64,000 bases of DNA, from the IMG/VR virus record IMGVR_UViG_3300045988_142718, one strand, 5' to 3'. The notes under the pieces are model-generated. The model saw nothing but the letters and a program-made list of their open reading frames with translations, searched no databases and was not told where the DNA came from. Of the stretch, positions 7,678 through 53,137 are shown piece by piece. Every line of letters begins with the position of its first letter. Positions within the stretch are counted from its first letter, which is position 1. The position numbers were made by a program, and so were the translations under genes. Origin of the DNA: a virus.

Positions 7678-7744
7678 TTGGGATTGGGAGGATGATGAAG
7701 ATATCCCAGATTATGAAGAGGATGATTCTTTTGAGATACCTTAA
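7664..7744 (+). CDS. 26-aa highly acidic ORF overlapping the helicase 3' end (small peptide or +1-frame C-terminal tail)
   Basis: MESYDWDWEDDEDIPDYEEDDSFEIP. Lies in the +1 frame relative to the helicase, and that frame stays open back across the A-run CTTAAAAAGAAA. Confidence 0.25.
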   Translation: MESYDWDWEDDEDIPDYEEDDSFEIP

Positions 7745-7977
7745 TTTTTCTGAGAAAACTAACTAAGCAAAAAAGCTAAGCTTTAAATAAGTTTAGGTTT
7801 TTAGGTTAGTTTTGGGGGGAAGGAAAAGAAGATATAGATAAAGAATATCAGAATAGAAAGATAGAAATTCTCAATATAAAGAAAATAGGATATCAAATAT
7901 CAAGGATTAAGGATATAAGGATATCCTATTATCATTTATAAAGGAAATTACATAATGTAATAAAGCATTAAATAAAT

Positions 7978-14700: not shown

Positions 14701-15260
14701 ATCAGATGAAGTTTATCCATAAGCATGGATACATAAAAACATTATTCGGTAGAAAAAGAAGATGCCCAGAGATCTTTGGTGATAATCAGATGCAAATTGT
14801 AGCTGCTGAGAATGCCGCAATCAATACCCCATCACAGTCTGCTGCTTCTGATATGGCATTGTTTACATCAATCCTAATTGATGAGCTCATTCAAAAAGGA
14901 GAATTTCCAGATTTACAAGAAGTAGGTACTGTCCATGACTCCATATATTTTGATACATTACCTCAAGACATCAATCCAAAGACCGTATATCAACTTTGGG
15001 ACATGGCAAGAAATCCCAGTACAAAAGAATGGTTCGGATTCCAAATCGATGACATAGATATGTCAATGGATTTCGAAGTAGGAAGGTCCCAGGGAGAAGA
15101 ATTACCCTTTGCAGTGGGATATGATTATAATCGATTATTAAATTTCAAAGGGGAATGGAAAGGGTCCAAGGAAGAAGAATATTATTTTTCACTGGTAAAC
15201 AAATGTAAATCAGTAGATATCAAGGACTATCCAAAGGTTTACCCAGAGTATTTCAAGTGA
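11757..15260 (+). CDS. polA: Family-A DNA polymerase with 3'-5' exonuclease domain, interrupted by an intein
   Basis: Exo motifs SVDFETTG, NAKFDMQV, YCAIDTD. Motif A is split: LMMDYSQ | intein | CELRLMAHLS. Motif B is RRKQAKHIVFGCIY, motif C is VGTVHDSIYFD. About 763 aa after splicing. Confidence 0.85.
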   Translation: MGKPKTKYHILENEQQLDMLIDACKKTGYASVDFETTGNRIYNNDFYPTILGVCFEPGRAGVIPLGHFDSKFKKSWKTKLQKFGEEVIANENIVKVAWNAKFDMQVFHKYGIFHKGRLFDGMLAKYVLDEAKPNDLKSMVRRFLPKFGDYEEDYEGCNLPWDQKPLLGLSQYCAIDTDMCLRLFLFFEKKMMDKKFYHLFRNLIMPASNLLTKVETRGQRLDKEWHGKLMGEYPRRILEAETKVRALKKVKRFEKSLIQQRLDKAISKIEEEIRESKKVIKTSDDSRKIASAERSIKNREEKIARLMAGEFNTKSEKAIIEPINFGSASQMTQLLFTDPKGFRFPVVKYTQKDKRDTDNPSSSEAVLLELQKTDKTGFIDTLLELRGLKQINNMFVKGFANLVQDDGRLHPKFNIHGTRTGRLSSADPNSQQLPRVATDPTIRRCLVASPGRLYLMMDYSQCIDGDSYIFCNTGIKKLKEIIPGKDKICMIDPQHKNKHRVLNIKVLANKGKAECLRITTNTGRQLILTEEHPVKTKQGFTLAKDLKLNGTLYIENLFGTKSVGRLLINSDEAYIAGLFYGDGHYPKEKSGKRKPTDMSIFFSTGSDREELQPLLDNYFGCEFYGPKNTSRGIRGHSDKVLSFYKKYPKKDSHEMEIPKRILKSDFESKMNFIGGQIDSDGSIGNGRFRYTSACEPYIRQLQLLFQSVGFHGIIRSTTTILNENEYTEYHLIVNYGLSRLKPYLRLKRKKQEIIDWELSKQYAVPANKTSHCSTQRIPLEIYQDLPRTSEFHKTYRNSLRKGRLIHSTLETYIDELSELDSRWLDVHHFMYEQITNIEKVGKREVYDMEVENLHEFNPNGIRVHNCELRLMAHLSKCKGLLEAFAKGWDPHLSVACKKYGVNYDDIYPIYKDEQHPDYTTWKIRRKQAKHIVFGCIYHIGAAKLAEELSDPKTGLVVTPKESQGFLDDFFKDFPEVKKFMDNQMKFIHKHGYIKTLFGRKRRCPEIFGDNQMQIVAAENAAINTPSQSAASDMALFTSILIDELIQKGEFPDLQEVGTVHDSIYFDTLPQDINPKTVYQLWDMARNPSTKEWFGFQIDDIDMSMDFEVGRSQGEELPFAVGYDYNRLLNFKGEWKGSKEEEYYFSLVNKCKSVDIKDYPKVYPEYFK
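13140..14351 (+). mobile_element. Intein (404 aa) with LAGLIDADG homing endonuclease, inserted in Pol motif A
   Basis: Starts CIDGDSYIF. Block B is LTEEHPV. LAGLIDADG motifs are YIAGLFYGDGHY and FIGGQIDSDGSI. Ends VYDMEVENLHEFNPNGIRVHN followed by Cys+1. Confidence 0.8.
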
Positions 15261-17526: not shown

Positions 17527-19800
17527 ATGGCAAAGAAAGTAAAGATAGGGATAAAGGTCCCAACATCCAGCGAGCTTAATAGAAGGTATGGGAATTTATT
17601 AATTAATCCCAGTACACAAGAAAGACCCAAGTTATGGTTACCCTCAAGATTCTTAGCTTTAAATTATCAGTATGGTGGAGGAATCCCTTTTGGTAAGATA
17701 CTGGAAGTCATGGGCCAAGAATCAAGTGGGAAAGCAGTTCCTTTGGATTCTCCAGTTTTAACCCCTACTGGATATAAATTAATGGGAGAATTATCTCTAT
17801 CAGATAAAGTAATGGACCCAGTTTCTGGGGATCCAATCTCCATTATTGGAATATACCCTCAAGGGTTAAAACGAGTATACAAGGTTACATTTAGAGATGG
17901 TGCTTCAGCAGAATGCTCAGAGGATCATTTATGGGAAGTACAATTCAGATCTCACAATCAGTATAAGTCTCAAGTATTAACCCTAAAAGAGATTTTAGAA
18001 AAAGGGTACAGAACAAAAAGGGCTTCTGGTAAAGGTAAATTTAAATATAAATATAACATACCAAGTACCATACCGTTAAACTTTGAAAAAAAAGAGTTAC
18101 CCATTCATCCATATATATTGGGATACATATTAGGTGATGGAGGTTTAGGTAGAGCAAATTATATTATGTTTAATATTGGATTAGAAGATGCTGATTCATT
18201 TAAACATAATATTTCTAAGTTCCTTAAAGAAGGGGCTGAATTAGAAGATAAGGGCATCTATGAAAATCCATTTGGGAAAACTCATAGATTTATCTTAAAG
18301 GGGTATTCAAAGGAAATAAGATCCTTATGCTTAGAGGGGAAATTATCCTCAGATAAGTTTATCCCGGAAGATTACCTTTGGTCTTCAGTAGAAGATAGGA
18401 AGTACTTATTATCGGGATTACTTGATTCTGATGGTACTATTGGTGAACAGCACAATCGAGCAAAATACTCCTCACGATTTAAGTTCTCATCCACTTCTTC
18501 AAAGATGATAAAACAGTTAGTACAAGTAGTACGATCACTTGGGGGATTTATAACAGAACCAAAATCGAAGGTTCGAGAACGTCAGTTCGAGGGTTATGAA
18601 AAAAGAATTTCAAAGGAGATTAGAACTGGAGGTAGATTGCCATTTAATCCATTCATGTTAGAGAGAAAAAGAAAACAGTATCAAGTAAAAATAGAGAACC
18701 AAACCAAATCCGCTAATTATAGAAGGTCCATTATCGATATCTCATATATTGGTAAAAAAGAATGTCAATGTATAAAGGTAAGTTCTGAAAGAGGGTTATT
18801 CATGTTGAATGATTTCATTGTTACTCATAATACTCTGGTAGCTTATGACTTTGCATATTGTACCCAACAATTGGGAGGCCATGTTATTTGGGTTGATGCC
18901 GAGCAATCTTGGGATAATTCATGGGCAGAACAAAACGGAATAGAATTGGATAAAGTTACAATCATCAGTTCAACCGAGATAGAAACAATTTCTGATGCTA
19001 TTGCCGATTTATCCATTCTATGGAGAAGCAAGTTAACTCATAATGAACCAATCCTTCTAGTAGTGGATTCTATAGCTGCTATGGACTGTACAGAAAACAT
19101 TAATATAAAAATGACCGATTGTAAAGCCGAGATGGGGGGCAGAGCTAAGGCATTGTATAAAATGTTTAGGATCAGAACAGAACTTCTCTCTAAGCTGGGC
19201 ATCACTCAAATTTATATCAATCAATTAAGGGTAGCTTTAAATGTGGGATTTGGTCAAGATAACACTACTTCAACTGGAGGGAAAGCTCTTGGATTCTATG
19301 CTTCTATCCGTTCTGCATTTTATGCTGGAAAACAAGTTACTAAAAAGGTAAAGGGTAAAGAAAGAAAGGTAGGGAAGTTAGTAAGTATACGCCCAATTAA
19401 GAACAAGGTATCACCCTTGAGGAATACAATCTCTAAAGCTCCCATATATTTCAATCCAAAATACGTTGAATATGTGGGTTTTGATAGATATCATGGATTT
19501 GCAGATATTCTGGTTGAAGAAGACGTATTGGAGAAAACCTCTGGAGGCATCTATAAGTATAAGGGAAAAACAGTTGCAAGAGGTGAAGAGAAATTTCAAT
19601 CTGTAGTAGAAGAGGATGATAAGCTTAGAAGAAAATTGATTAAAGCTTGTGGAATAAACACTATCAGTGTTACCCAGAGTAAAATTGATGAGCTTGTAGA
19701 AAAGGGTATAAACCTCTTCCCAGTAGATGGAAATTTGGATTATGAATCTCAATCCGATGATTCAGAAGATGAAGAAGAGGAAGAAGAATTCGAAGATTAA
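17527..19800 (+). CDS. recA: RecA recombinase interrupted by an intein in the P-loop
   Basis: GKILEVMGQESSGK | intein | TLVAYDF..VIWVDAEQSWD..LVVDSIAAM..MGGRAKALYKMFR..IYINQLR..TTSTGGKALGFYASIR. About 391 aa after splicing. Confidence 0.85.
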   Translation: MAKKVKIGIKVPTSSELNRRYGNLLINPSTQERPKLWLPSRFLALNYQYGGGIPFGKILEVMGQESSGKAVPLDSPVLTPTGYKLMGELSLSDKVMDPVSGDPISIIGIYPQGLKRVYKVTFRDGASAECSEDHLWEVQFRSHNQYKSQVLTLKEILEKGYRTKRASGKGKFKYKYNIPSTIPLNFEKKELPIHPYILGYILGDGGLGRANYIMFNIGLEDADSFKHNISKFLKEGAELEDKGIYENPFGKTHRFILKGYSKEIRSLCLEGKLSSDKFIPEDYLWSSVEDRKYLLSGLLDSDGTIGEQHNRAKYSSRFKFSSTSSKMIKQLVQVVRSLGGFITEPKSKVRERQFEGYEKRISKEIRTGGRLPFNPFMLERKRKQYQVKIENQTKSANYRRSIIDISYIGKKECQCIKVSSERGLFMLNDFIVTHNTLVAYDFAYCTQQLGGHVIWVDAEQSWDNSWAEQNGIELDKVTIISSTEIETISDAIADLSILWRSKLTHNEPILLVVDSIAAMDCTENINIKMTDCKAEMGGRAKALYKMFRIRTELLSKLGITQIYINQLRVALNVGFGQDNTTSTGGKALGFYASIRSAFYAGKQVTKKVKGKERKVGKLVSIRPIKNKVSPLRNTISKAPIYFNPKYVEYVGFDRYHGFADILVEEDVLEKTSGGIYKYKGKTVARGEEKFQSVVEEDDKLRRKLIKACGINTISVTQSKIDELVEKGINLFPVDGNLDYESQSDDSEDEEEEEEFED
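17734..18831 (+). mobile_element. Intein (366 aa) with LAGLIDADG endonuclease; candidate class-3 intein
   Basis: Begins with Ala (AVPLDSPVLTPTG). Block B is SEDHLW (Trp two residues after His). YILGYILGDGGL and LLSGLLDSDGTI. Block F is ECQCIKV. Ends FIVTHN followed by Thr+1. Confidence 0.7.
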
Positions 19801-19928: not shown

Positions 19929-20510
19929 ATGAAAAAGAGAGATATTATTATAGATAAAGGTATATCTGGTGCTTACTATGCTGATAAGTTTTTACCAGAT
20001 AACCTACCTGGCTACCCCGGTTATCATATATCCAAGTTCGGCAAAGTTTATAGTCGATGGGATATCAATGGTAAAGGGGTACTGAGGGTTCGATGGCATT
20101 TAAAAAGGCCTCAACCTAACCGGTTAGGTAGGCTATTAGTAGGTATTACGAATGGAAAGAAAACTAAGAAATTTCAAGTACATCGATTAGTAGCAATGGT
20201 ATACATTCCAAATCCCAATAATTATCCAAATGTTTGCCATAAAGATAACAATCCCCAAAATAATCGTGCAAGTAATCTATATTGGGGAACTCAAAAAATG
20301 AACATGAACCAGGCATCACTGGAGGGTAGGATGGTATCCAAGGTAAAGGGGTTACCAAAGAAACTTTCTGATTTACAGATCAGTTATATACCAAAATTAT
20401 TTGAGAGAGGGTTTTCATATAGAGATATCTCTTATATTTTTAACAGAGAAGCTTCTACTGCTACAATTAAGAGGTGGCATTTTTTGTATATTAAAAAATA
20501 TGGATTATGA
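19929..20510 (+). CDS. Free-standing HNH homing endonuclease (NUMOD4 + HNH_3-like)
   Basis: GYHISKFGKVYS... HRLVAMVYIPNPNNYPNVCHKDNNPQNNRASNLYWGTQKMN. Confidence 0.7.
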   Translation: MKKRDIIIDKGISGAYYADKFLPDNLPGYPGYHISKFGKVYSRWDINGKGVLRVRWHLKRPQPNRLGRLLVGITNGKKTKKFQVHRLVAMVYIPNPNNYPNVCHKDNNPQNNRASNLYWGTQKMNMNQASLEGRMVSKVKGLPKKLSDLQISYIPKLFERGFSYRDISYIFNREASTATIKRWHFLYIKKYGL

Positions 20511-24842: not shown

Positions 24843-25355
24843 ATGTCAGTGAACAGTAAAAATAAAGGATCCAAAGCTGAAAGGGAACTTGCTAAGGTAT
24901 GGGAAAGATGGACTGGCTATAAATTTTCTCGAACTCCCATGTCAGGAGGTTGGGCTAAATCTATCGAATCTTTTGGAGATTTAACCTGTACTGATCCGAA
25001 ACATAGCCACAAATTCCCTTTCAGTGTTGAATGTAAATCCTATAAGGGTATAACATTCAATGATATTCTAAAAGGTACAAAATCCGATGTACTTAGGTTT
25101 TGGGAACAAGCCTCATATGATGCTAACCGATGTAATAAAATCCCATTATTATTTATGAGAGAGAATGGGATGGCAAAGCAAACCTATTTTTTAGTATGCG
25201 ATGTAAAAGTGGGAAAGCTAATCGTAGATTTATCCAAGAAAAGCTTAGACATGATTGCTTTGAGCTGTTCATTGGGGGATCTACTGGTGTTCAATTCAAA
25301 CGACTTAACGGCGATTCCCTATAATGAATTCTATAAAGCAGTAAGGAAATTATGA
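24843..25355 (+). CDS. PD-(D/E)XK-type nuclease, putative Holliday-junction resolvase
   Basis: KGSKAERELAKVW...GDLTC...FSVECKSYKG pattern (E..D..ExK). Confidence 0.4.
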   Translation: MSVNSKNKGSKAERELAKVWERWTGYKFSRTPMSGGWAKSIESFGDLTCTDPKHSHKFPFSVECKSYKGITFNDILKGTKSDVLRFWEQASYDANRCNKIPLLFMRENGMAKQTYFLVCDVKVGKLIVDLSKKSLDMIALSCSLGDLLVFNSNDLTAIPYNEFYKAVRKL

Positions 25356-26068
25356 AAAAAAGAGAATATGTATGGTGTATATGCCATATAGATAATAAAC
25401 TTTATGGTTCAATCGAAGCTGAGCTTAAAAAAGCAAAATATGATGATATCAAAGTATACATTCCAACACTTTCAATATTAAAAAAACGAAGTAAAGGAAA
25501 AGATATCTATGAGGATGTACCCATGCTATTCTCTTATGGCTTTATCAGAATGAGAAAAGAAAAAGCATTCTCAAGGGTATTCCTACATCGATTAAAAAAG
25601 GTGATCCCAGGAATCCATTCTTGGGTAAAGTCTCCAGAGACAATGCACCCAAGGAAAATAAAAGCTCGGATTCAAAATGCCGAAGATTGGGATGACTTCT
25701 CTATTGTAGCAACAGTATCCAGAAAAGAAATCAGAAGATTAAAAAGACTCTCCAAAGAAAACAAGGTTTATTCTAAGTATGATATTGCCCAATTAACAGT
25801 GGGAAGTTATATCGTATTAAGAGGGTATCCTTTTGATGGTGTTCAAGCAACAGTATTAGAGATAAACCTTAACACACAAAATGTAAAGGTAAAATTATTC
25901 CCAAATGGGGGTGAAATCGAAATATGGTTACCTTTTGAGAATGTTCTTTACAGTACATACTTGGATTATGATCCAGATAAATTAGCTTATGATCATGCCG
26001 AGGATAATATTAGCAATTCTTATAAATTAACTACAACACAAGAAGAGGACTCATTATGGATGGATTAG
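25352..26068 (+). CDS. NusG-like transcription elongation/antitermination factor (NGN + KOW)
   Basis: NGN-like N-terminus (VWCICHID..SIEAELKK..VYIPT..VPMLFSYGFIRM). KOW-like region: VGSYIVLRGYPFDGVQATVLEINLNTQNVKVKLF. Confidence 0.5.
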   Translation: MKKREYVWCICHIDNKLYGSIEAELKKAKYDDIKVYIPTLSILKKRSKGKDIYEDVPMLFSYGFIRMRKEKAFSRVFLHRLKKVIPGIHSWVKSPETMHPRKIKARIQNAEDWDDFSIVATVSRKEIRRLKRLSKENKVYSKYDIAQLTVGSYIVLRGYPFDGVQATVLEINLNTQNVKVKLFPNGGEIEIWLPFENVLYSTYLDYDPDKLAYDHAEDNISNSYKLTTTQEEDSLWMD

Positions 26069-30241: not shown

Positions 30242-30748
30242 ATGGCTAGAAAAAAAGAAGCTAAAGTAGAAGTAGTTAACGAAGTAGCAATCAGCAAAAC
30301 ATTGGTATTGGTAACCTATTCAGATGGCACCTCCGAAATCCGATTTAAATTGACTTCAGATGAACTTGAGAAATTGGTAGCTGCAGTTTCTCCTGCCGAA
30401 GAAGAAGATGAAGAAGAAGATGAAGAAGAAGATGAAGAAGAAGATGAAGAAGAAGATGAAGATGAAGAAGAAGATGAAGAAGAAGATGATGAGGATGAAG
30501 AAGAAGATGATGAGGATGAAGATGATGAGGATGAAGAAGCCGCTGCTCCTTCTCCCGAAGAATTAGCTGGTATGGACTTCGAAGAACTGGAAGATGTCTG
30601 CGATGATCACTCCCTGGATGTAGACCCGGACGATTACGAAGAAGAAGACATCGAAAAGTTCCGCAAGGCAATCGCCAAGGAATTGGGTATCACTTTACCG
30701 AAAGCCAAGAAAGAAACTAAGGCAAAAGGTAAAAAGGGAAAGAAATAA
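30242..30748 (+). CDS. Polyacidic protein (47-residue uninterrupted D/E run) with lysine-rich C-terminal tail
   Basis: EEEDEEED... run encoded at 30398-30538. Flanks have G/C-richer, expression-type codons. C-terminus is KAKKETKAKGKKGKK. Confidence 0.65.
   Translation: MARKKEAKVEVVNEVAISKTLVLVTYSDGTSEIRFKLTSDELEKLVAAVSPAEEEDEEEDEEEDEEEDEEEDEDEEEDEEEDDEDEEEDDEDEDDEDEEAAAPSPEELAGMDFEELEDVCDDHSLDVDPDDYEEEDIEKFRKAIAKELGITLPKAKKETKAKGKKGKK
30398..30538 (+). repeat. Coding microsatellite: GAAGAAGAAGAT x5 perfect (30398-30457), then degenerate copies
   Basis: Read directly from the sequence. In frame, it encodes the D/E run. Confidence 0.9.
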
Positions 30749-39993: not shown

Positions 39994-40029
39994 TTATATT
40001 TGCATTGTAATATTAATCATATAAAAAAT
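39994..40029 (+). repeat. 36-bp exact direct repeat (promoter cassette), copy 1
   Basis: TTATATTTGCATTGTAATATTAATCATATAAAAAAT, identical to 43004-43039. Contains TATATTTGCA 33 nt upstream of the ATG at 40038. Confidence 0.9.
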
Positions 40030-40037
40030 GTAATAAC

Positions 40038-40379: not shown

Positions 40380-40461
40380 AAACATTCATCATTATGGCAA
40401 CAACAGCAACTCAAATCTGCGGAGCAACAAATATTATTATTAACGAAAAAGCATAAAAGCT

Positions 40462-41094
40462 ATGACAACAAAAGAAATCAAAAACTGGGAATGGATCAAA
40501 TCAGTAGAGGTCCAATATATGGGATTCTTAACCCAATATTTAGGAACTGCAACCGATAGTAAGGGATTTGTTGAACTAATGAAACAACTTAGATTAGATG
40601 AAGCAATAGCTTACCTAAAAGATGACCTTGGAAAAGGTAGTTCAGAACCAAGCTATTACAAATTCCAATTCTATACCAAAACAATGCAGTTCACAAAAGA
40701 AGAAGAGTTCTGGGAAGCTATTAGTAAGGGTTCAATACCCGAAATCGAACAACTAAAAGGAAAGGAATTACTGGATACTTTAGAAGCTCTAAGAACCATT
40801 CTCCATCCAACAGTAAGAGCATTACTAGAATCCTATATAATAGATATGGTAATGCCCATACCAGGAATTATTTCCTTCTTATTGATAGTGAAACCCAAAC
40901 AAGAAATTGAGCCAGGCACAATAATGTTTCGTATCAGATATCTGATGGAAGGATGTATAGACCATGAGCCAACACCACTACTCAAGGAATATCATATCCA
41001 CCTAAACGCTCAACCAAAAGAAGGCCAAGAAAATCCCTTTATAACACAAATCATATTAATATCAAAGAAATTAACTACCATCACAATCAAATAA
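40462..41094 (+). CDS. Hypothetical protein
   Basis: 210-aa ORF, the last gene before the ORF-free region. Confidence 0.55.
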   Translation: MTTKEIKNWEWIKSVEVQYMGFLTQYLGTATDSKGFVELMKQLRLDEAIAYLKDDLGKGSSEPSYYKFQFYTKTMQFTKEEEFWEAISKGSIPEIEQLKGKELLDTLEALRTILHPTVRALLESYIIDMVMPIPGIISFLLIVKPKQEIEPGTIMFRIRYLMEGCIDHEPTPLLKEYHIHLNAQPKEGQENPFITQIILISKKLTTITIK

Positions 41095-41819
41095 TAATCA
41101 TTATCCTTAACTATGAAAAGGTTTACATTTCCCACCAACAAACACAATTTAAATCAAAGCTCATCATACTTCAAGGATAATAAAAGAATCCCTTACACTC
41201 ATCCAAAAAACAATGATCATAGAATAAGGATTATATAATCACATACATTAGGATCCCAAAAAACACAAACAAAAAAGAAATCGAATAAATAAATCCCAGT
41301 TCTATGATATAAATAATCCAATAATCCCCATATCACAAGGATTATATACCCATAACCCAAAACAACACCTAAAAAAGAAAATCATAAGTCAATGATAATA
41401 TATAAACCCATTATCACATAAAGCCAATGATCACCTACAACACAAACAAAATAAAAATCATCATATGAGATATCCTTGATATTATCCTAGATCCCAAAAA
41501 ACAAACATAATCCTAAAGATAACGCATAAAGGGATATCATATCAATGATAATATAATCCCTATCCTTATCACCAAAAACCAAACACATAAAAATAAAATC
41601 CCCATTATAACAATGATAAAAGGAATCCTATATATAACCTACATACAAAAAATAAAAAATAATAAAGGTATATATAATAGGATTAAATAAAATATGAAAT
41701 ACATATCAAATACACTATCAAATAGAAGCTATATAACATGGGTATAACACGGGGGCGAAATTTACTCGATAGCACGAACTATACATACGTATCTCTAAAC
41801 CATAGAGTTTTCAAGTTTT

Positions 41820-41896
41820 AAGGCCCTAAAATTTGCATACGTGTTGTGTACATTTTTTCGAAAAATTAGGTCTGGGATTTGAGGATTTAGGGCCTT
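41820..41896 (+). repeat. 11-bp inverted repeat with 55-nt spacer in the core, followed by a T-run
   Basis: AAGGCCCTAAA (41820-41830) / TTTAGGGCCTT (41886-41896). The spacer contains AAATTTGCAT and GGTCTGGGAT. Confidence 0.75.
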
Positions 41897-41961
41897 TTTT
41901 ACCCTAAAACGTCAACTTAGCTCACTTTTAGCACTTTTGACTTTTTTAACCCATTTTTTAC

Positions 41962-41987
41962 AAACATATCCAAAACATATCCAAAAC
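41962..41987 (+). repeat. 11-bp tandem repeat, about 2.4 copies (AAACATATCCA)
   Basis: Read directly from the sequence; the period is about one helical turn. Confidence 0.8.
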
Positions 41988-43003
41988 TGTACTTTTTTTC
42001 GAGCACAAGTTAAAAATAGCCGGCTTTAGAAAAAAATATCAAACTCTCAACTTCAAGATTTTAGGATAAATTTTAGGGTTATCTATGGATAAATTAAAAT
42101 CACAATCGAAGCTAAAAACAATGTCTTTTATTTATTAATCTAGAACATAATAGAGGGTAATCTTTCTAGTTACTTAGAATTAAAGTAAAATTTACTAGAG
42201 GTATGTTAAATTAAATATTTAATCGAAAGTCTGGGATTATGATAAAATTCGATGATTATTATAAAATGATTGCCTTGAATTCGATGATTTTTAATAAATT
42301 TGGTTCAATGATTCGATGATTTTATTAAATCCTTGATCTGGGATAATGATTTTATTATAACCCTTATTATTATATTATATATAATATATAGGATTATGTT
42401 CTGTGTTCTGAGATTATTATAATCCTTGATTCGATGATATGTTATCATATTATATAAGCTTTGTGTTTTCTTTTGTAGGATCTGTTTTCATAGCTCTTAT
42501 TATATTATTATATAATATAAGGGATATGATTATAATCCTTGATCTGTGATCTGATGATGTTTTATATTATATTATATTATTATATATATATGATTATTAT
42601 TATATATATGATTATTATTAATTTTTTGATAGAAGCTTGTTTTTGGGCTATATTGGAGCTATGTTGATTTTTTTAGGGCCTTATTATATATAATATATAT
42701 TATAATAGGATAATTATAATAGGATAAGGATTTTATTCGATGATCCTATGTACATTGTGTTCAAGGATATTTTTATTTTTCGATGTGTTTTTTGGGCTAA
42801 CCAAGAAGGTATAGGATTTGGCTCAAGGCTTTAAGTATAATATAATAAGGCCTTAGATCATTGTGTCCATTTAATTCGATGTAAGGATTCAAGGCCTTAT
42901 TATATACCATGGATGGCCCTAAGTTTAAATAATCTTTCGAAGTGAGCCTTGAATCAGAGCCCAAATTTTATATGCGTATTATATTATATATAATATATAA
43001 TGA

Positions 43004-43039
43004 TTATATTTGCATTGTAATATTAATCATATAAAAAAT
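43004..43039 (+). repeat. 36-bp exact direct repeat (promoter cassette), copy 2
   Basis: Identical to 39994-40029. TATATTTGCA at 43005-43014, 34 nt upstream of the ATG at 43049. Confidence 0.9.
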
Positions 43040-43048
43040 TATTGCCCT

Positions 43049-43456
43049 ATGAACACAACAGATCAGTTATTTAATAACACAATCCTATTCCAGGATACAG
43101 AGAACATCGAAGGAACAGTAAAAAATGTTTATCTGAGACAATTCTTTTATGAATCCTTAGGAATGGATGATCCTAGAGGTTATAATCTTTGGTCAAGGAT
43201 TTTTAATCGCTTTTCTAAAGTTGATTCTAGTATGGTTCGAATTTTACCTAATGATCCTGAGAAATTAGTTTGGTTCTTAGAATTATCGATTACAGATAAC
43301 AGAGACCAAATTATATCGGAGAATTATGATAAGGCATTATCCTTCTATAAGGAAACATTAAATGAAATCCAAGATTACCTTGACCTATCTAATGCCTTTC
43401 AATATATAGGATTGGGTAATACGAAATTATATATCACATTCATAGCTGAAATTTAA
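43049..43456 (+). CDS. Hypothetical protein
   Basis: The track start at 43010 is inside the promoter; the first ATG is at 43049 (MNTTDQLF...). Confidence 0.55.
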   Translation: MNTTDQLFNNTILFQDTENIEGTVKNVYLRQFFYESLGMDDPRGYNLWSRIFNRFSKVDSSMVRILPNDPEKLVWFLELSITDNRDQIISENYDKALSFYKETLNEIQDYLDLSNAFQYIGLGNTKLYITFIAEI

Positions 43457-43549
43457 TGCTAGCCTGTTCGATACATCGAATACTAATTATCTTATGAAAA
43501 TAAATCTTAATCATACTCAATAGGAATATTACTCTAATCAAATCTGTAT

Positions 43550-43586
43550 AAGGTAGCTCGCTTGGGATAAGTAGGCTACCTTTTTT
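43550..43586 (+). terminator. Rho-independent terminator
   Basis: AAGGTAGC / GCTACCTT stem followed by TTTTTT. Confidence 0.6.
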
Positions 43587-43935
43587 ATTTGTGTTCTTTT
43601 ATCTTTACTTTGTAAAACCTGCTAGCTAAGGCCTTAATTCTTTGAGCCCATCCTACTTTCAGGATATCTTTATACGATATATTATATAAAACCTGCTAAC
43701 CAAGCGTAAGGCCCTGTAAGCCCAAAAGGCCATAATAATCTCCATTGATGGCCCTAAATAAAGGCCTTCAAAAACCAGCCAACTAAGGCCTTGATTTTTT
43801 AGGCAGGTAGGTAGGTAATGATGAAGGCAGGGTGATGGTGAGCAATGATATTTTAATAAATAAAATCTATTTGTTTAATAGAAAAATTCAATAAAAATTT
43901 TTCTCAAAATATTTTTGTATTTAAAAAATTCATTG

Positions 43936-43945
43936 TATATTTGCA
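43936..43945 (+). promoter_or_regulatory. TATATTTGCA promoter element
   Basis: 45 nt upstream of the ATG at 43991. Confidence 0.6.
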
Positions 43946-43990
43946 ATACAGAAAAACAAATAAAACGTATCACTTTAAAAATTAAAAGTC

Positions 43991-44506
43991 ATGAATGCAA
44001 ATGTAAATGAAAATGTGTTATTAAATGGAGTAAACAACAATGTAGAAGAATCTGCAAAAGTTGAAAAAAAGAAAACACAAAAAACAACTGCAAAAAAGAG
44101 CACAAAAAAAGAAAGTGCAAAAGTAGAAAAAAAAGAAATAGAAAAAATTTCTTTTTCCAAATTACTCGAAACATTGGACACAACGGGATTGCATACCAAT
44201 TCAGGTTTAAAGAAAGAGAATCTATATAACTCTTCCATTTATGCGGATTGTTTAACAGATAAAGATAAAAAGTCTGTTAGACGCAAAATTCGTAATCTTT
44301 TGGACAATTTTATAGGAAGCATTATTCGTTCAGAAAAGAATAAAACAATTTGCGAAAATCATTGCAAACAATTCAAATTATTTTATGAGCAAGTTTATAG
44401 AATAAATGATTTTTCCGTAGAAAGTTTAGTTTCTAATAATACAGATGAATTAAAAAAAGAGAATTTAAAGAAAATGCTTGAAATTGTAAAAAAGAATTTG
44501 AAATGA
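43991..44506 (+). CDS. Lysine-rich protein, YxYP...KxFRxKxR paralogue
   Basis: SAKVEKKKTQKTTAKKSTKKESAKVEKKE N-terminus. Motif SSIYADCLTDKDKKSVRRKIRNLL. Own promoter and strong terminator. Confidence 0.6.
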   Translation: MNANVNENVLLNGVNNNVEESAKVEKKKTQKTTAKKSTKKESAKVEKKEIEKISFSKLLETLDTTGLHTNSGLKKENLYNSSIYADCLTDKDKKSVRRKIRNLLDNFIGSIIRSEKNKTICENHCKQFKLFYEQVYRINDFSVESLVSNNTDELKKENLKKMLEIVKKNLK

Positions 44507-44595
44507 AAAAAGAAAAAATAAAAGAGTGCATAATATTTGCACTCTTATTCCTTATATATATTTGGTGTTGCTGTAATTCATAAATAATAATAAAG

Positions 44596-44636
44596 AGAGT
44601 ATATTTTTGTCCCCTATAAAATATACTCTTTTTTTG
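44596..44636 (+). terminator. Strong rho-independent terminator
   Basis: 12-bp stem AGAGTATATTTT / AAAATATACTCT followed by a T-run. Confidence 0.7.
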
Positions 44637-44968
44637 CTTTAATGGGCAACCCTTCCCCTCTCTTATTCATATAAGATTTTTCGATAAAGCCTATAAGGGA
44701 TTTCCTTCATTTCCCTTCTTCCTTTAGGATTGCCACAACTTTTTTCTGAAAACACAATAAGGGATTTCATTTAAATCTTTGAATTATATTACCCTTACAT
44801 ATCTTTTGTATTCATATTGGATTTTTATGATATGATTATTCGATGAGATGTTATCCTTTATTTCATTTGTTTATCCTTTATTGGGATTCAAGGTTTTTTA
44901 TCCCTTATGCTTTATCACATTAGGATTTTTATTTTTCATTTTATGTTTGTTTGTTTGGGGACTCTTAC

Positions 44969-45006
44969 AATAAAGGCCCAAGATAAAAATACCCCAGGCC
45001 TTTATT
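44969..45006. terminator. 10-bp hairpin downstream of the minus-strand fibre-like gene
   Basis: AATAAAGGCC / GGCCTTTATT with an 18-nt loop. Confidence 0.4.
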
Positions 45007-45026
45007 ATTAATCACTAAGGATTTTT

Positions 45027-45614
45027 TTAATCTACTGGGCTCTTTCCAGCTTTTAATACGTACCCAGTAAATGAAAAGTTATATCTACCAGTATTAACTG
45101 CAGTGATATTTACACTTTCAAGAAATAATACGTTTTCTACCCATGGGTATCCATTTTTCATACTGGTTGAACTACCGTATCCCGAAAAGTATGAAAATAA
45201 ATCTTCTGATAAATTATAAATACATAATCCATTATTGCCATCTATGGGCATAGCATATGTTACGATTACTACCAGATCACCTTTATGGAAGCTTTCATTG
45301 ATTTGATTTAAGGCTGATTGGATACTGTCTAAAGTGCAATTTACTTTTATGGAGACTGTGGATTTATTTGGAGCCATAACCATCTTTCTAGCGGTTTCAT
45401 TAGTATCCAACTGGGTACTGAAGATAGAACCTTTTCCTATTAATTCTTTGTACTTATCTCCAGATGGGATGCTTTCGATTCCCAATCTTAGGGCTTCAAA
45501 GGATGGCTGAGATCCTGGGTCTACCCCTTTATTTCTCAGAGCATCCCTTAAATTGGTTTTTGCTTGGTTGATGGATGATGTTAATGATTGGATCCTTTCT
45601 TTCAATGTAGGCAT
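45027..45614 (-). CDS. Fibre/receptor-binding-like protein sharing an N-terminal module with 45916-47112
   Basis: MPTLKERIQSLTSSINQAKTNLRDALRNKGVDPGSQPSFEALRLGIESIPSG aligns with the N-termini of two neighbouring ORFs. Confidence 0.4.
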   Translation of the reverse strand: MPTLKERIQSLTSSINQAKTNLRDALRNKGVDPGSQPSFEALRLGIESIPSGDKYKELIGKGSIFSTQLDTNETARKMVMAPNKSTVSIKVNCTLDSIQSALNQINESFHKGDLVVIVTYAMPIDGNNGLCIYNLSEDLFSYFSGYGSSTSMKNGYPWVENVLFLESVNITAVNTGRYNFSFTGYVLKAGKSPVD

Positions 45615-47750: not shown

Positions 47751-48284
47751 TTATAAATCTTTTAAATACCTTGAAAGGTTTTTTCTGGACCTCCCATCAA
47801 TTTTTGAAATGAAGACAGTGGAGAACCCCATTTGTTTAAGCAATCTTACCCAAAATATCTCAAATGTAGTAAATTTGGGCCCTGTTCTGGGAGTAATTTT
47901 ATAAACAATGTTATCTTTACCCGACTTAAATAAGGAACCACTCCGATTTTCAGCGACCATTTGTTGCATATTTTCAGACTGAGTTCCCCATTTTAGGTTT
48001 GAAAAATGGTTATTTTGAGGATTGTTGTCCAAGTGCATCACCAAAGGCTTATTTTCTGGATTTGGTATATGTGCTATAGCTACTAATCGGGAAACTTGGT
48101 ATTTATATACTTTTCCATTTTTACGTAACTGTACTCGTAAACGACCTTTGTGTGAAATCATAGGGTTAACTTTTCTCCAAAATTTAGCTTTACCCCTACC
48201 ATTTCTTGACCTTATTGTCCAAATAATTCCTTTTGGACTAACATAATACCCCCAAAATCCTGGTATATTGTCATGTTTTACCAT
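47751..48284 (-). CDS. Free-standing HNH homing endonuclease (NUMOD4 + HNH_3-like)
   Basis: PGFWGYYVSPKGIIWT...VSRLVAIAHIPNPENKPLVMHLDNNPQNNHFSNLKWGTQSEN. Paralogue of 19929-20510. Confidence 0.7.
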   Translation of the reverse strand: MVKHDNIPGFWGYYVSPKGIIWTIRSRNGRGKAKFWRKVNPMISHKGRLRVQLRKNGKVYKYQVSRLVAIAHIPNPENKPLVMHLDNNPQNNHFSNLKWGTQSENMQQMVAENRSGSLFKSGKDNIVYKITPRTGPKFTTFEIFWVRLLKQMGFSTVFISKIDGRSRKNLSRYLKDL

Positions 48285-50629: not shown

Positions 50630-53137
50630 ATGGCGAAAAAGGAAATAGATACCTCTCATCTGAATGCTCAACAATTTAGAGAATTGGTTCAAGTACAAAA
50701 GGATGTCTTTTACTTCTCAACATTTGCTTATGTGGTTCACCCAGTAAGAGGTAAAACAAGGTTCCTTTTATACCCATACCAAAAATCAGTACTGTATTGC
50801 TTCCTAAAACATCGATTTAATATCATCCTAAAATTCAGGCAAGCGGGGATCACAGAATTGATTTCTCTTTATTGCTTATGGCTAACGATGTATCACCCAA
50901 ACAAAAAGGTGAACATCATCTCCATCAAGGATTCTGTAGCAAAGAAGGTATTAAAGAAAATCAAATACATGTACAAGAATCTCCCAGAACACTTAAAAGT
51001 TCCCATCGTAAATGGTAGAATGGGAGAGCTGGGAACAGCCTGTATAACAGGCGATACCATGATCCTTGGTACTAAAACTGATTTCCCAATTCAATCCATA
51101 GCTCCATCTGAAAAGGGTTATTTAGATGTATCCGGTTTGAATATAAGGGTTCTTACAGAGAATGGTACTTTTGAAAGGATTATGAAAACTTTCAATAAGG
51201 GTAAGCTAAAAACTTACACAATTGTAAATGATCGCGGGTTAACCCTGAGATGTACTCCAAAACATAAATTATTAACTACCAAAGGTTGGAAAACTGTAGG
51301 AGAGATCCTTAAAAACAATCTAACAGTGATTTTTAAGGATACCAAAGAACTTGTAAACTTAGCTCCACCAAAGGTAGAGAAACCAGTTACGGAGGAGATA
51401 AGAGAAACTAACATACCCGGGTATTGGGTATCCAATCTTGGTAGGGTGTTTACTACTAAAACCAAGAAAGGTAAAGGTCACGGTAGGGATGGTATAAATC
51501 CCTATGGGACAGAACTAAGGGTAATGGTTACTATGGTTAATCGACATGAGAGGGTCAAATTAACATACAAAGGTTCTCGTCAAGTGTATTCTGTACATAG
51601 ATTGGTATGGGAAGCTTTTAAAGGACCTATCCCCGAAGGGATGATTATTGACCATATCAATGGTAATGGTTGTTGTAATTGGATAACTAACTTGCAAGTG
51701 ATAACCTATTCGGAGAATACCAGAAGGGCTTTTACTATGAATAGAGTCTTAAAACAGTCTGTTCGTCAAACAGAGACATTATCATATAAACAGATAGGTC
51801 GAGTAAAAGAGCTTTTAAAAAGGGATAAATACCTAAATAGAGAAATAGCCAAACGAGTAAGTGGTGGGGATAAAGACCTATTGGATCAGAAGAAAGTATC
51901 TCGTATCAGTAGGGGAAAAAATTGTAGTGATATATATATCAGTAAGATAACTAAGGTAGATACTACCCTAGAAACCATATATGACATGGAGGTAGAGAAT
52001 TACCATAGTTATATAACTACTAATGGGTATATAAATCACAATTCTACAATTGAATTTAATAATGGTTCTTTTATAGAATCCATCCCAACTTCGGAAGAAG
52101 CAGGACGTTCAGAATCCCTTTCTTTATTGGTAATCGATGAGGCTGCAATTGTAAGATGGGCTTCACAGATTTGGTCTGCAAGTTTCCCCACACTTTCCAC
52201 TGGTGGGAGTGCTATCCTAAATTCAACTCCCTATGGAATTTCTGGCTTCTATCATTCAAAATGGGTTGAAGCGATTACAGATTCTGATTCTCCTTTTCAC
52301 CCTATTCGATTATATTGGAAAATGCACCCCGAGCGAGATCAGAAATGGTACGATACAATGTCCAAAGCTTTGGGCCCAAGAAGAACTGCCCAAGAAATTG
52401 ATGGTGACTTCCTTTCTTCCGGTAGTACTGTATTTGATCTTACAGATATTAAGGCAATAGAAGATACCCTATCGGAATACCCAGTAATCGAAACAAGGTT
52501 TAATGGCCAGTTAAGAATCATGGATAAACCAAAACAAGGTGTAAGATACTTTATTGGTGCTGACGTTGCTACGGGACGTTCTAATGACTACTCAGCTTTT
52601 ACTTTGGGTGATTCTAATGGAGAAGAAGCTGCAGTATTTAAAGGGAGAATCCCAGTAGAGAAGTATGCTAAAATCTTGGGCAATCTGGGAAAAGAATTCA
52701 ATTGGGCAACAATTGCCCCTGAAACTAATGATATTGGTTTGGCAGTAACAACTTTACTTCAAATCGAAGGATATCCTCAATTGTATTATCATAAAAAGCT
52801 TCTCAAAAAGAAAGGAAAGTCAAGGCCAGAAGTAGAACAATATCCCGGATGGATAACCACATCTAAGAACCGATCCCTAATCATTGATGGATTGGAAGAA
52901 GATATCAGAAAAGATAACATTACAATTAAGGACCCATTTTTTGTTCAAGAGGCTTATACCTTTATCTATGATTCAATAGGCAGGCCAGTAGCAATGGGTA
53001 AACACAACAGAAACAATCAAACCTCAGACATTGACATGGATGAGGAAACCTATTCGGATGATAGTATTTTTGGTAAAGCAATATACAATCATGTGAGGAA
53101 GAATTACAAACCTTCATTGATAATTCAACCTAAATAA
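50630..53137 (+). CDS. terL: Terminase large subunit interrupted by an intein
   Basis: FRQAGITELISLY (terminase-type deviant Walker A) ... GELGTA | intein | STIEFNNGSF..SLLVIDEAAIV (Walker B). C-terminal nuclease-domain-sized region. About 501 aa after splicing. Confidence 0.75.
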   Translation: MAKKEIDTSHLNAQQFRELVQVQKDVFYFSTFAYVVHPVRGKTRFLLYPYQKSVLYCFLKHRFNIILKFRQAGITELISLYCLWLTMYHPNKKVNIISIKDSVAKKVLKKIKYMYKNLPEHLKVPIVNGRMGELGTACITGDTMILGTKTDFPIQSIAPSEKGYLDVSGLNIRVLTENGTFERIMKTFNKGKLKTYTIVNDRGLTLRCTPKHKLLTTKGWKTVGEILKNNLTVIFKDTKELVNLAPPKVEKPVTEEIRETNIPGYWVSNLGRVFTTKTKKGKGHGRDGINPYGTELRVMVTMVNRHERVKLTYKGSRQVYSVHRLVWEAFKGPIPEGMIIDHINGNGCCNWITNLQVITYSENTRRAFTMNRVLKQSVRQTETLSYKQIGRVKELLKRDKYLNREIAKRVSGGDKDLLDQKKVSRISRGKNCSDIYISKITKVDTTLETIYDMEVENYHSYITTNGYINHNSTIEFNNGSFIESIPTSEEAGRSESLSLLVIDEAAIVRWASQIWSASFPTLSTGGSAILNSTPYGISGFYHSKWVEAITDSDSPFHPIRLYWKMHPERDQKWYDTMSKALGPRRTAQEIDGDFLSSGSTVFDLTDIKAIEDTLSEYPVIETRFNGQLRIMDKPKQGVRYFIGADVATGRSNDYSAFTLGDSNGEEAAVFKGRIPVEKYAKILGNLGKEFNWATIAPETNDIGLAVTTLLQIEGYPQLYYHKKLLKKKGKSRPEVEQYPGWITTSKNRSLIIDGLEEDIRKDNITIKDPFFVQEAYTFIYDSIGRPVAMGKHNRNNQTSDIDMDEETYSDDSIFGKAIYNHVRKNYKPSLIIQPK
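51041..52042 (+). mobile_element. Intein (334 aa) carrying a NUMOD4/HNH_3-type endonuclease
   Basis: Starts CITGDTMILGT. Block B is RCTPKHKLLT. IPGYWVSNLGRVF...HRLVWEAFKGPIPEGMIIDHINGNGCCNWITNLQVITYSEN. Ends IYDMEVENYHSYITTNGYINHN followed by Ser+1. Confidence 0.75.

Follow-up and report, generated by a model that had tools for sequence, protein, structure and literature searches.

Origins of replication such as lambda ori, those of iteron plasmids, T4 oriF and oriG, and the T7 origins combine spaced direct repeats, bent DNA, and a meltable AT segment with nearby promoters. Here, we describe a region of 1.9 kb free of open reading frames (ORFs) in the IMG/VR virus record IMGVR_UViG_3300045988_142718, of which a stretch of 64,000 nucleotides (nt), referred to as the window, was analyzed. 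The region (positions 41095 to 43003 of the window) consists of an A/C-rich left arm, a core, and a T/G-rich right arm, and we tentatively propose that it is a bidirectional replication origin set in a region where transcription stops and starts again.

By appearance, the nearest described system is untranslated repeat region 3 of phage T5 (iss), which spans 1.2–1.7 kb of the long terminal repeat and carries eight paired DnaA boxes (Davison, bioRxiv 10.1101/866236). Both are gene-free stretches in lytic phages with their own PolA-type replisome. However, T5 has a fixed-end genome with a terminal repeat, whereas the phage studied here yields circular assemblies and encodes a T4-like terminase, and placement of its region in a terminal repeat is not supported. 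The DnaA boxes of T5 are paired in inverted repeats, whereas such boxes are not enriched here; the T5 repeats are conserved in order, whereas the arms of the present region are hypervariable; and no mirror-image strand composition is described for T5.

By the mechanism proposed below, the nearest systems would be the iteron/unwinding-element origins and the promoter-plus-unwinding-element origins of the T phages. The present region shares with iteron/unwinding-element origins a non-coding locus of conserved position, spaced repeats that are specific to each lineage, a predicted bend, an adjacent meltable AT-rich element, and a promoter close by. Unlike iteron origins, it has no initiator gene in cis and no DnaA boxes, and its AT-rich arms extend over hundreds of base pairs (bp) instead of 40–100 bp. 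In contrast to the T4 and T7 origins, no canonical promoter fires into the AT-rich DNA.

Two systems of transcription control also offer parallels. At the rut sites of Rho-dependent terminators (lambda tR1), G-poor, unstructured RNA with more C than G lies downstream of a gene and is followed by a hairpin, as it is here, but the arm of the present region is ~10 times longer and far less C-rich. In antitermination by NusG paralogues (RfaH/ops; Bacteroides UpxY/opsX), structure-free, sequence-specific elements in long untranslated leaders recruit the factors (PMC11685472). The phage likewise encodes a NusG-like protein, but there is no conserved ops element of the YGCGNAGCR type, and the UpxY match of the protein lies far below the family cut-off. 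In kind, the region would be a phage non-coding origin/control region, unusual in the size of its hypervariable arms and in their mirrored strand composition.

A gene-free region with mirrored strand composition

As judged from sequence and conservation, the region is a family-conserved cis-acting control region of a phage of the candidate family "Flandersviridae". An earlier note, made from the letters of the window alone, had described it as ORF-free, and this was borne out: the longest ORF overlapping 41095-43009 encodes 55 aa (42797-42964, minus strand). The region is by far the biggest gene-free gap in the window, whose genes lie near-exclusively on the + strand. Base counts agreed with the described A/C-rich, G-poor left arm (41095-41740; A 50, C 19, G 7, T 24 %) and T/G-rich right arm (42231-43003; A 31, C 9, G 16, T 44 %), with an about balanced composition in the core (41741-42230). 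Nowhere in the 64 kb is G as scarce as in the left arm, whose G-poor stretch starts at ~40971, within the 3′ end of the upstream gene 40462-41094.

At a scale of 646 nt, the GC skew of the left arm (-0.55) lies ~8 standard deviations (sd) under the rest of the window, where values outside 40.9-45.1 kb range from -0.13 to +0.33 (mean +0.09, sd 0.08). The value of the right arm (+0.38) barely exceeds the +0.33 reached elsewhere, which leaves the left arm as the sole gross outlier. The same compositional pattern was found in no other intergenic region of the window. The description of the arms as mirror images proved right for base composition but barely for motif content, as the 6-9-mers that the left arm shares with the reverse-complemented right arm gave z = 0.2-2.0 against composition-matched nulls. 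"Mirror image" describes the composition, not an inverted repeat of binding sites. The region is present in at least 18 independent near-identical assemblies and is therefore not an assembly artefact, the possibility that the earlier note had named as fatal to its own proposal.

Conservation among relatives

The source phage belongs to a candidate family of Bacteroides phages with genomes of ~80 kb that are very common in the human gut. Its near-identical relative PPYF01000036.1 (locus L048; 98 % identity of the lysine-rich (K-rich) protein described below, block A of Table 1 present) is listed as Flandersviridae in a table of Benler et al. (2021, PMC8008677). In the same study, OGPH01000157.1 is the Flandersviridae-listed representative of a cluster holding OGPO01000092.1, which is locus L101 and a member of our more distant clade. 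The layout of the window is colinear with that of published Flandersviridae, with a structural block, a DnaB/DnaG/PolA module, and a ~20-kb block of unknown ORFs. Hosts of the family are Bacteroides and Parabacteroides (Benler et al., 2021, PMC8008677), and a word search of the text of this family-defining paper gave no mention of the locus. Flandersviridae are among the most often detected human-gut phages and apparently have no cultured member.

The relatives retrieved comprise nine IMG/VR contigs, ~40 metagenome contigs of the near clade, and ~40 from a more distant clade; relatives assemble as contigs of 74-83 kb. In 30/34 loci, an ORF-free gap of 698-1885 bp, the largest of its locus, lies 0.9-2.2 kb upstream of the K-rich gene. 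These loci span two clades, in one of which the K-rich protein is just 32-35 % identical, and the first third of the gap is A/C-rich in most of them. Among the four exceptions, the gaps of L081, L085, and L106 occupy the same place but are shorter, at ~0.7 kb, and L044 is a probable chimeric contig. In L044 (OGOJ01000027.1, 124 kb), similarity to the window begins abruptly at the equivalent of 42685, in the AT-rich right arm, with unrelated DNA upstream, which probably marks a chimeric assembly join; the IMG/VR contig 3300045988_160889 (115 kb) also exceeds the ~80-kb genome.

Among close relatives, the arms are rich in indels and in gains and losses of modules, that is, hypervariable. Identity within the core (41800-42300) is 96-100 %, with 89 % in one patch, and conservation of the core and of the right edge (42800-43050) equals that of the neighbouring genes without exceeding it. 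In the intermediate relatives L025, L028, L030, and L032, whose K-rich protein is 56-66 % identical, the elements follow the order found in the window: a G-poor A/C-rich arm directly 3′ of the last upstream gene, a run of five G (G5), the core, a homologue of block A, AT-rich DNA, and a canonical promoter. A G5 or longer run terminates the arm in L025, L030, and L032 as well. The core of these relatives is GC-richer, with GGCC-containing words and short direct repeats that are lineage-specific, yet in the same place.

Block A gave nhmmer matches in 41 sequences (E 1e-17 to 1e-20), always co-oriented with the flanking genes, and was also seen as blastn blocks. A small RNA or peptide encoded in block A was considered and rejected, since zero consensus pairs were predicted on either strand and the 34-aa ORF of L025 is broken in the window by stops and a 1-nt indel. 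The overall pattern, with a core conserved like a gene, variable arms, and a block A kept further out without ORF or RNA structure, is that of a DNA site.

The arms of different lineages vary in length between ~100 and ~770 nt. The strand bias and RNA unstructuredness of the left arm are kept in lineages without alignable arm sequence, which points to constraint or to a persistent directional process. In the distant clade, small ORFs occupy part of the A/C-rich first third. The small ORF 41113-41238 of the window was rejected as a gene, as a 10-nt deletion breaks its frame in L004 and it has 3-8 codons in L030 and L032; its start context recurs in relatives.

The surroundings of the region also vary. 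The 210-aa gene directly upstream (40462-41094) is absent from L008, other relatives carry indels of up to ~300 alignment columns at 40401-40450, and in L025, L030, and L032 the gap has other neighbouring genes. The K-rich protein (43991-44506) is family-wide and always encoded 1-2 kb downstream of the non-coding region. KK..AKK repeat units occur in variable number in its N-terminal part, and its C-terminal helical domain is confidently predicted, with no sequence or fold match; the protein was accordingly rejected as a DNA-binding partner of the region.

Elements of the region

Table 1. Elements of the ORF-free region and its surroundings, and genes of the window that define its setting (window coordinates; for genes, the first number is the listed position)
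Feature	Position	Strand	Description
Left arm	40971..41740	+	G-depleted, A/C-rich, indel-rich array; non-coding from 41095; CCAAAAAACA and CAATGAT boxes
G5 run	41751..41755	+	Closes the G-poor arm; read from sequence
Hairpin	41820..41900	+	11-bp stem AAGGCCCTAAA / TTTAGGGCCTT, then T6; terminator-like for rightward transcripts
Phased-tract core segment	41905..42060	.	T/A tracts and 11-bp tandem CATATCCAAAA x2 at 41965-41986
GGATAAATT pair	42064..42095	+	Locally variable core patch, identity 0.89 in bin
Block A	42114..42235	+	Unique ~110-nt block conserved in near and intermediate relatives
Right arm	42231..42790	.	T/G-rich, very AT-rich, indel-rich array; TTCGATGAT boxes
Palindrome/hairpin	42840..42905	.	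15-bp perfect stem built on AAGGCCTT
Predicted early promoter of gene ATG 43049	42972..43014	+	-33-like ATGCG, AT-rich spacer, -7 box TATATTTGCA at 43005-43014
Third, smaller hypervariable array	44650..45010	-	A/C-rich on minus strand, 3′ of minus-strand gene 45027-45614
DnaB-type helicase	2406		Replication module
Primase	4286		Replication module
Helicase	6196		Replication module
PolA with intein	11757 (11757-15260)		Intein/HNH homing-endonuclease insertion
SSB	16657		Replication module
RecA-like with intein	17527 (17527-19800)		Intein/HNH homing-endonuclease insertion
Exonuclease	20507		Replication module
SbcCD	22124/23101		Replication module
RusA	24843		Replication module
Small unknown genes	28-50 kb		~20-kb accessory block; ORF-free region in its middle
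TerL with HNH/intein insert	50630 (50630-53137)		Start of structural block
Portal	53146		Structural block
Protease	54648		Structural block
Major head protein	56659		Structural block

Every motif that the earlier note had placed in the region was found again, apart from small corrections of coordinates. Three of the four window copies of CCAAAAAACA lie in the left arm (41203, 41256, 41494), and five of the seven window copies of TTCGATGAT in the right arm (42248, 42280, 42312, 42430, 42736), the first three at an exact spacing of 32 bp. The words AGGAT (15 copies) and ATCCT (10 copies) are ~2.6-fold enriched, in agreement with the more than 20 reported. CAATGAT does occur five times in the left arm, but there is a sixth copy at 42306. 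The two GGATAAATT copies (42064, 42087) are 23 bp apart instead of 22, and the 11-bp tandem repeat, given as 41962-41987, has the slightly shorter span listed in Table 1. The 23-bp AT repeat occurs in the window only at 42368 and 42977, as described, and the copy at 42977 is the spacer of an ordinary promoter. The 11-bp-stem hairpin reported at 41820-41896 is real, whereas the enclosed TTTGCA (41832), taken for a promoter-like element, is non-canonical and scores <3 bits with the phage promoter matrix.

This core hairpin has a predicted energy of -20.4 kcal/mol (z = -0.99) and, with its T6 run, is unchanged in six relatives. The adjoining segment 41905-42060 is 96-100 % identical among relatives, and the GGATAAATT patch varies in L006 and L008. 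Block A holds three G[GT]TAAAAT-like boxes at spacings of about 28 and 21 bp plus several CTAG, and its TAAAAT..CTAG anchor pattern occurs once in the window. The right arm contains AT-palindrome modules at 42368, 42498, 42565, and 42682, as well as TGTTTTTGG / TGTTTTTTGG at 42638 and 42786. The hairpin at 42840-42905 (-25 kcal/mol, z = -4.7) showed no variation in relatives; Rfam "mir-1245" matches on both of its strands (E = 0.3, 1.1) were rejected as palindrome artefacts. The third array ends in a GGCC-stem hairpin (44969-45008, z = -6.25).

Words of the form AAGGCC / GGCCTT are ~15-fold enriched over 41820-45010, and GGCC is 5-fold enriched over 41.1-45.0 kb. Inverted pairs of these words often form hairpin stems (41820/41886, 42840/42891, 44969/44999), and the words also fill non-coding DNA of the distant relatives MT121964 and MT835790. 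A restriction-site or palindrome account was rejected: GGCC is up 5-fold and CTAG 2-fold, but GATC is just at expectation, and GGCC sits mainly in hairpin stems.

Bacteroidota promoters have the consensus -33 TTTG / -7 TAnnTTTG. Thirteen sites in the window consist of a -33 TTGCA or TTTG, an AT-rich spacer, and TATATTTGCA (TTTGTA in two). The site at 43005-43014, 35 nt before the ATG at 43049, matches the form of the 12 others and scores 39 bits with the matrix built from the 13, which marks it as the one canonical promoter of the Bacteroidota housekeeping-sigma type predicted here. Over 41000-43000, the matrix gave no other match of at least 12 bits, and nothing else in the region scored above 11 bits. 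A promoter array was rejected on the same grounds, sigma-70-type matches being at chance level. The regulatory hub that had been suggested agrees with the right-edge promoter and with the core hairpin and its T-run, and the promoter scans lent no support to divergent non-coding transcripts.

A candidate bidirectional origin

Several properties of the DNA are consistent with an origin. At all scales between 60 and 400 bp, no duplex in the 64 kb is less stable than the right-arm segment 42321-42720, and the inner left arm has the second-lowest duplex stability at scales of 200-400 bp. In the core (41741-42230), AAA/TTT tracts recur with a periodicity of 9.75 bp (power 1.54 vs. a null 95 % value of 0.85), which suggests bent DNA; no helically phased A-tracts were found in the arms. 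Regularly spaced direct repeats comprise the 11-bp tandem, the two copies of GGATAAATT, the three block-A boxes, and the three copies of TTCGATGAT at 32 bp.

The strand bias extends beyond the region. In + strand genes of the window, the GC skew at 4-fold sites is -0.41 ± 0.06 just left of the region and -0.05 ± 0.11 just right of it; left/right values are -0.54/-0.27 in L025, -0.30/-0.04 in L030, and -0.36/-0.12 in L032, with differences of about 2-3 standard errors in each of the four lineages. A boundary scan of the window placed the largest left-to-right jump in 4-fold skew (+0.44) at 43.0 kb. A weaker bias of the same sign as in the arms is seen at synonymous sites over roughly 10 kb. The polarity, with C/A excess on the left and G/T excess on the right, is of the bidirectional-origin type, not that of a terminus. 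The earlier note held the skew to be far too strong and too local to be mutational, and this objection is weakened because the arms drift freely and grow by duplicating skewed modules, and because the bias at synonymous sites shares their sign. Furthermore, the replisome of the phage comprises DnaB, primase, PolA, SSB, a RecA-like protein, and an exonuclease with no recognizable initiator, so an unannotated origin is expected somewhere.

In our proposal, the unique core and the AT-rich DNA beside it would together form the origin. The protein-binding sites would be the short direct repeats found in the core and in the inner part of the right arm, namely block A, the 11-bp tandem, and the 32-bp-spaced TTCGATGAT copies, and the DNA of the core would be intrinsically bent. 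The adjacent, easily melted arms would then open and let in the DnaB-type helicase, primase, and PolA of the phage, so that replication would be initiated at the core. Rather than reflecting mirrored binding sites, the A/C versus G/T mirror composition would mainly have been left by strand-asymmetric mutation: forks would leave the core consistently in both directions, the arms would be free of sequence constraint, and repeat duplication would amplify the bias. Rightward transcription from the upstream genes would be stopped on the left by the unstructured, G-poor trailer together with the hairpin and its T-run; on the right, a single host-type promoter would restart it. T4 replication begins at an origin and later switches to recombination-primed replication. 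The present phage, which bears a RecA-like protein, may likewise make such a switch, in which case fork polarity would be consistent only near the origin and the skew would be local.

A number of results weigh against an origin. The total cumulative GC skew has no genome-scale turn at 42 kb, so the compositional switch is a local feature, and the minimum of the detrended cumulative 4-fold skew lies at 46.2 kb instead of 42 kb. In distant genes, the 4-fold skew is alike on both sides (-0.20 at 2-28 kb, -0.16 at 50-62 kb), which means that the effect is local and that differences between gene classes could produce it. Right-hand minus-strand genes agree with the replication prediction in only 3/5 lineages. 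The putative iteron copies vary even among near-identical strains, and block A was undetected in the distant clade. There is no DnaA-box cluster: DnaA boxes are no more frequent than expected by chance, and a single 1-mismatch site lies in the region. The flanking proteins showed no initiator or DNA-binding domain and no family or fold match, and the replication genes are 12-40 kb off. A second stretch, 7678-7977, which adjoins a helicase gene, is an alternative origin candidate. It is a 300-nt C-poor, purine-rich non-coding stretch 3′ of that gene, with a G6 run, repeated GGATATC / AAGGAT words, and the top GC skew of the window at the 300-nt scale (+0.52).

The origin suggested by the earlier note is compatible with these results and receives some support from the duplex-stability minimum, the phased tracts, the repeats, and the jump in 4-fold skew, but it lacks a genome-scale turn of the cumulative skew, a DnaA cluster, and a nearby initiator. 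We rank a bidirectional origin first among the explanations, as a tentative assignment. The region is a place to seek the replication origin by read depth in existing metagenomes, the strand asymmetry that reaches flanking synonymous sites is checkable across hundreds of public genomes, and the region is a candidate for shuttle or reporter constructs.

A possible transcription barrier

The main alternative, which is compatible with an origin and which we consider possible although unlikely, is that the left arm is an oversized Rho-utilization (rut) zone that, together with the hairpin and T-run, ends long rightward early/middle transcription. The right arm would likewise stop leftward antisense transcription, the core would be the protected promoter-upstream region of the next unit, and a NusG/UpxY-like factor of the phage might permit later read-through with a timing like that of lambda N/Q.

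The position and composition of the left arm are as this explanation would have them: it lies directly after the last gene of a long + strand run, and its C/G ratio is 2.7 over 646 nt. Its + strand, which is exceptionally unstructured whether taken as RNA or as single-stranded DNA, folds at -0.109 kcal/mol/nt vs. -0.228 ± 0.020 in controls, i.e., it is ~6 sd less structured, and values from -0.056 to -0.104 kcal/mol/nt were obtained for the left arms of relatives, distant ones included, despite sequence turnover. That composition is kept while sequence is not is what would be predicted for a rut site. The invariant hairpin with T6 follows downstream, and the third array (44650-45000) is G-poor on the strand of the gene that it follows.

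However, arms of 640-770 nt have about ten times the known length of a rut site, and the C content is only 19 %. A YC spacing of 12-13 nt is marginal in the left arm of the window (p = 0.045) and non-significant in three of the four left arms of relatives tested (L006, L010, and L030, as opposed to p = 0.025 in L025); p was 0.005 in the third array and non-significant in the right arm. Other gene ends of the phage have ordinary hairpin terminators, as at 43550-43590, and are not G-poor. The right arm is fed by no minus-strand gene or promoter. Block A, the phased tracts, and the jump in synonymous-site skew find no place in a barrier.

The NusG-like factor that this explanation draws on is encoded by ORF 25352-26068, whose N-terminal NusG (NGN) domain exceeds the family cut-off (Pfam PF02357, E = 6.7e-5) and whose best NCBIfam match is to the UpxY antiterminators of Bacteroides (E = 1.5e-7, below the cut-off). 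The phage thus apparently encodes a NusG paralogue. The only ops-like site, CTGCGGAGCA at 40417-40426, fits the non-template hairpin consensus YGCGNAGCR of Bacteroides opsX and resembles opsE (CTGCGAAGCATA). It is the sole GCGNAGC in the window and lies inside a short insert found in 3/21 relatives checked, so that the likeness is probably due to chance. As part of a non-conserved insert, the site was rejected as a functional ops and counts against the barrier.

Other explanations

It is improbable, in our assessment, that the arms have no function of their own and are quickly evolving repeat expansions and recombination scars within the accessory block, where cassette shuffling would have left remnants of promoter spacers and leaders that slippage then enlarged, with only the terminator, the promoter, and block A of importance. 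The modular, indel-rich make-up of the arms, their range of lengths between lineages, the likeness of the right-arm AT-palindrome modules to real promoter spacers, and the turnover of neighbouring genes all speak for it. So does a duplication of 33 identical nt (TATTTGCATTGTAATATTAATCATATAAAAAAT) at 39999-40031 and 43009-43041, which covers the -7 box and leader of two different genes and points to recombination between gene-cassette junctions. The strand bias and RNA unstructuredness kept across lineages without alignable arms, the uniqueness of the pattern among the intergenic regions of the window, and the non-coding gap kept in this place in 30/34 loci argue against it.

More speculatively, and with still less probability, the arms might be a functional device rather than a by-product: two giant, sequence-free, composition-only transcription insulators, outward-facing Rho-loading zones on both strands that shield a unique origin or regulator-loading site (block A) from incoming RNA polymerase and that the UpxY-like NusG paralogue opens late in infection. 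If so, a temporal switch like that of lambda N/Q would have been built from different parts in a very common human-gut phage family.

A genome terminus, terminal repeat, or pac/cos site in a circularized assembly, with a T5-like injection stop as a special case, is very unlikely. Many contigs break in the region, the GenBank relatives MT121964 and MT835790 begin near the equivalent place, and the region shares with T5 iss the character of a large untranslated repeat region. However, the contig ends are scattered over 41.7-43.1 kb (window equivalents 41731, 42323, about 42624, 42752, and 43014, among many others), typically where core and arm meet or inside AT repeats. Breaks are explained by the co-occurrence of six strains in one sample, and the region itself offers an explanation for assembly breaks in these phages. 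Contigs of genome length (78-83 kb) run through without interruption and have their breaks instead at a (GAA)n coding repeat near 30.4 kb. Paired DnaA boxes of the T5 iss kind are absent, and the region lies 7.6 kb upstream of the TerL gene. The best solved-structure match of TerL is T4 gp17 (E = 4e-18), and the TerL of Flandersviridae branches with that of Ackermannviridae (Benler et al., 2021, PMC8008677), which together suggest headful packaging. The terminus or pac site that the earlier note had offered as an option is therefore disfavoured by the scattered ends, the contigs running through, and the T4 gp17-like TerL.

The coding repeat belongs to the gene 30242-30748, in which a (GAA/GAT)n tract encodes a strongly acidic (E/D)n protein. 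The ends of three independent IMG/VR contigs lie within this tract, and several ~80-kb contigs have their start about as far upstream of the K-rich gene as the tract is. A physical terminus near 30 kb was rejected, as this sole pile-up of contig ends is a recurrent assembly break at the (GAA)n coding repeat, one that might be taken for a genome end.

Finally, one or more non-coding RNA genes are highly improbable, whether the left arm were to yield, for instance, an unstructured A/C-rich RNA that acts as a sponge or decoy, or the core a small RNA. In favour of such genes, transcription of the left arm as a 3′ trailer is almost certain, the core is conserved although it has no ORF, and the hairpin with its T-run could terminate a small RNA. 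However, Rfam 15 gave no match at gathering score and only chance and palindrome hits at E < 5, core folds gave z of +0.24 and -1.03, block A has no consensus pairs, no phage-type promoter lies inside the region, and the arms form no giant hairpin. A large structured RNA was rejected on these fold values, which were no better than shuffled on both strands, and a giant RNA hairpin between the arms because just 74/646 left-arm bases pair with the right arm.

Genome setting and further observations

A blastn search of INPHARED with the region as query gave no match. A search for the host among isolate genomes did not find the core 21-mer, and protein matches were only to mis-binned contigs of metagenome-assembled genomes. 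No integrase, partition gene, or tRNA was seen in the window. Besides the insertions listed in Table 1, there are free-standing HNH genes at 19929-20510 and 47751-48284. In the intergenic segment 45615-45915, between divergent minus- and plus-strand genes, AAGTTAATATTATAAGAT occurs twice in tandem and is followed by the palindrome TTATAAGATAGTATCTTATAA, an arrangement that looks like an operator.

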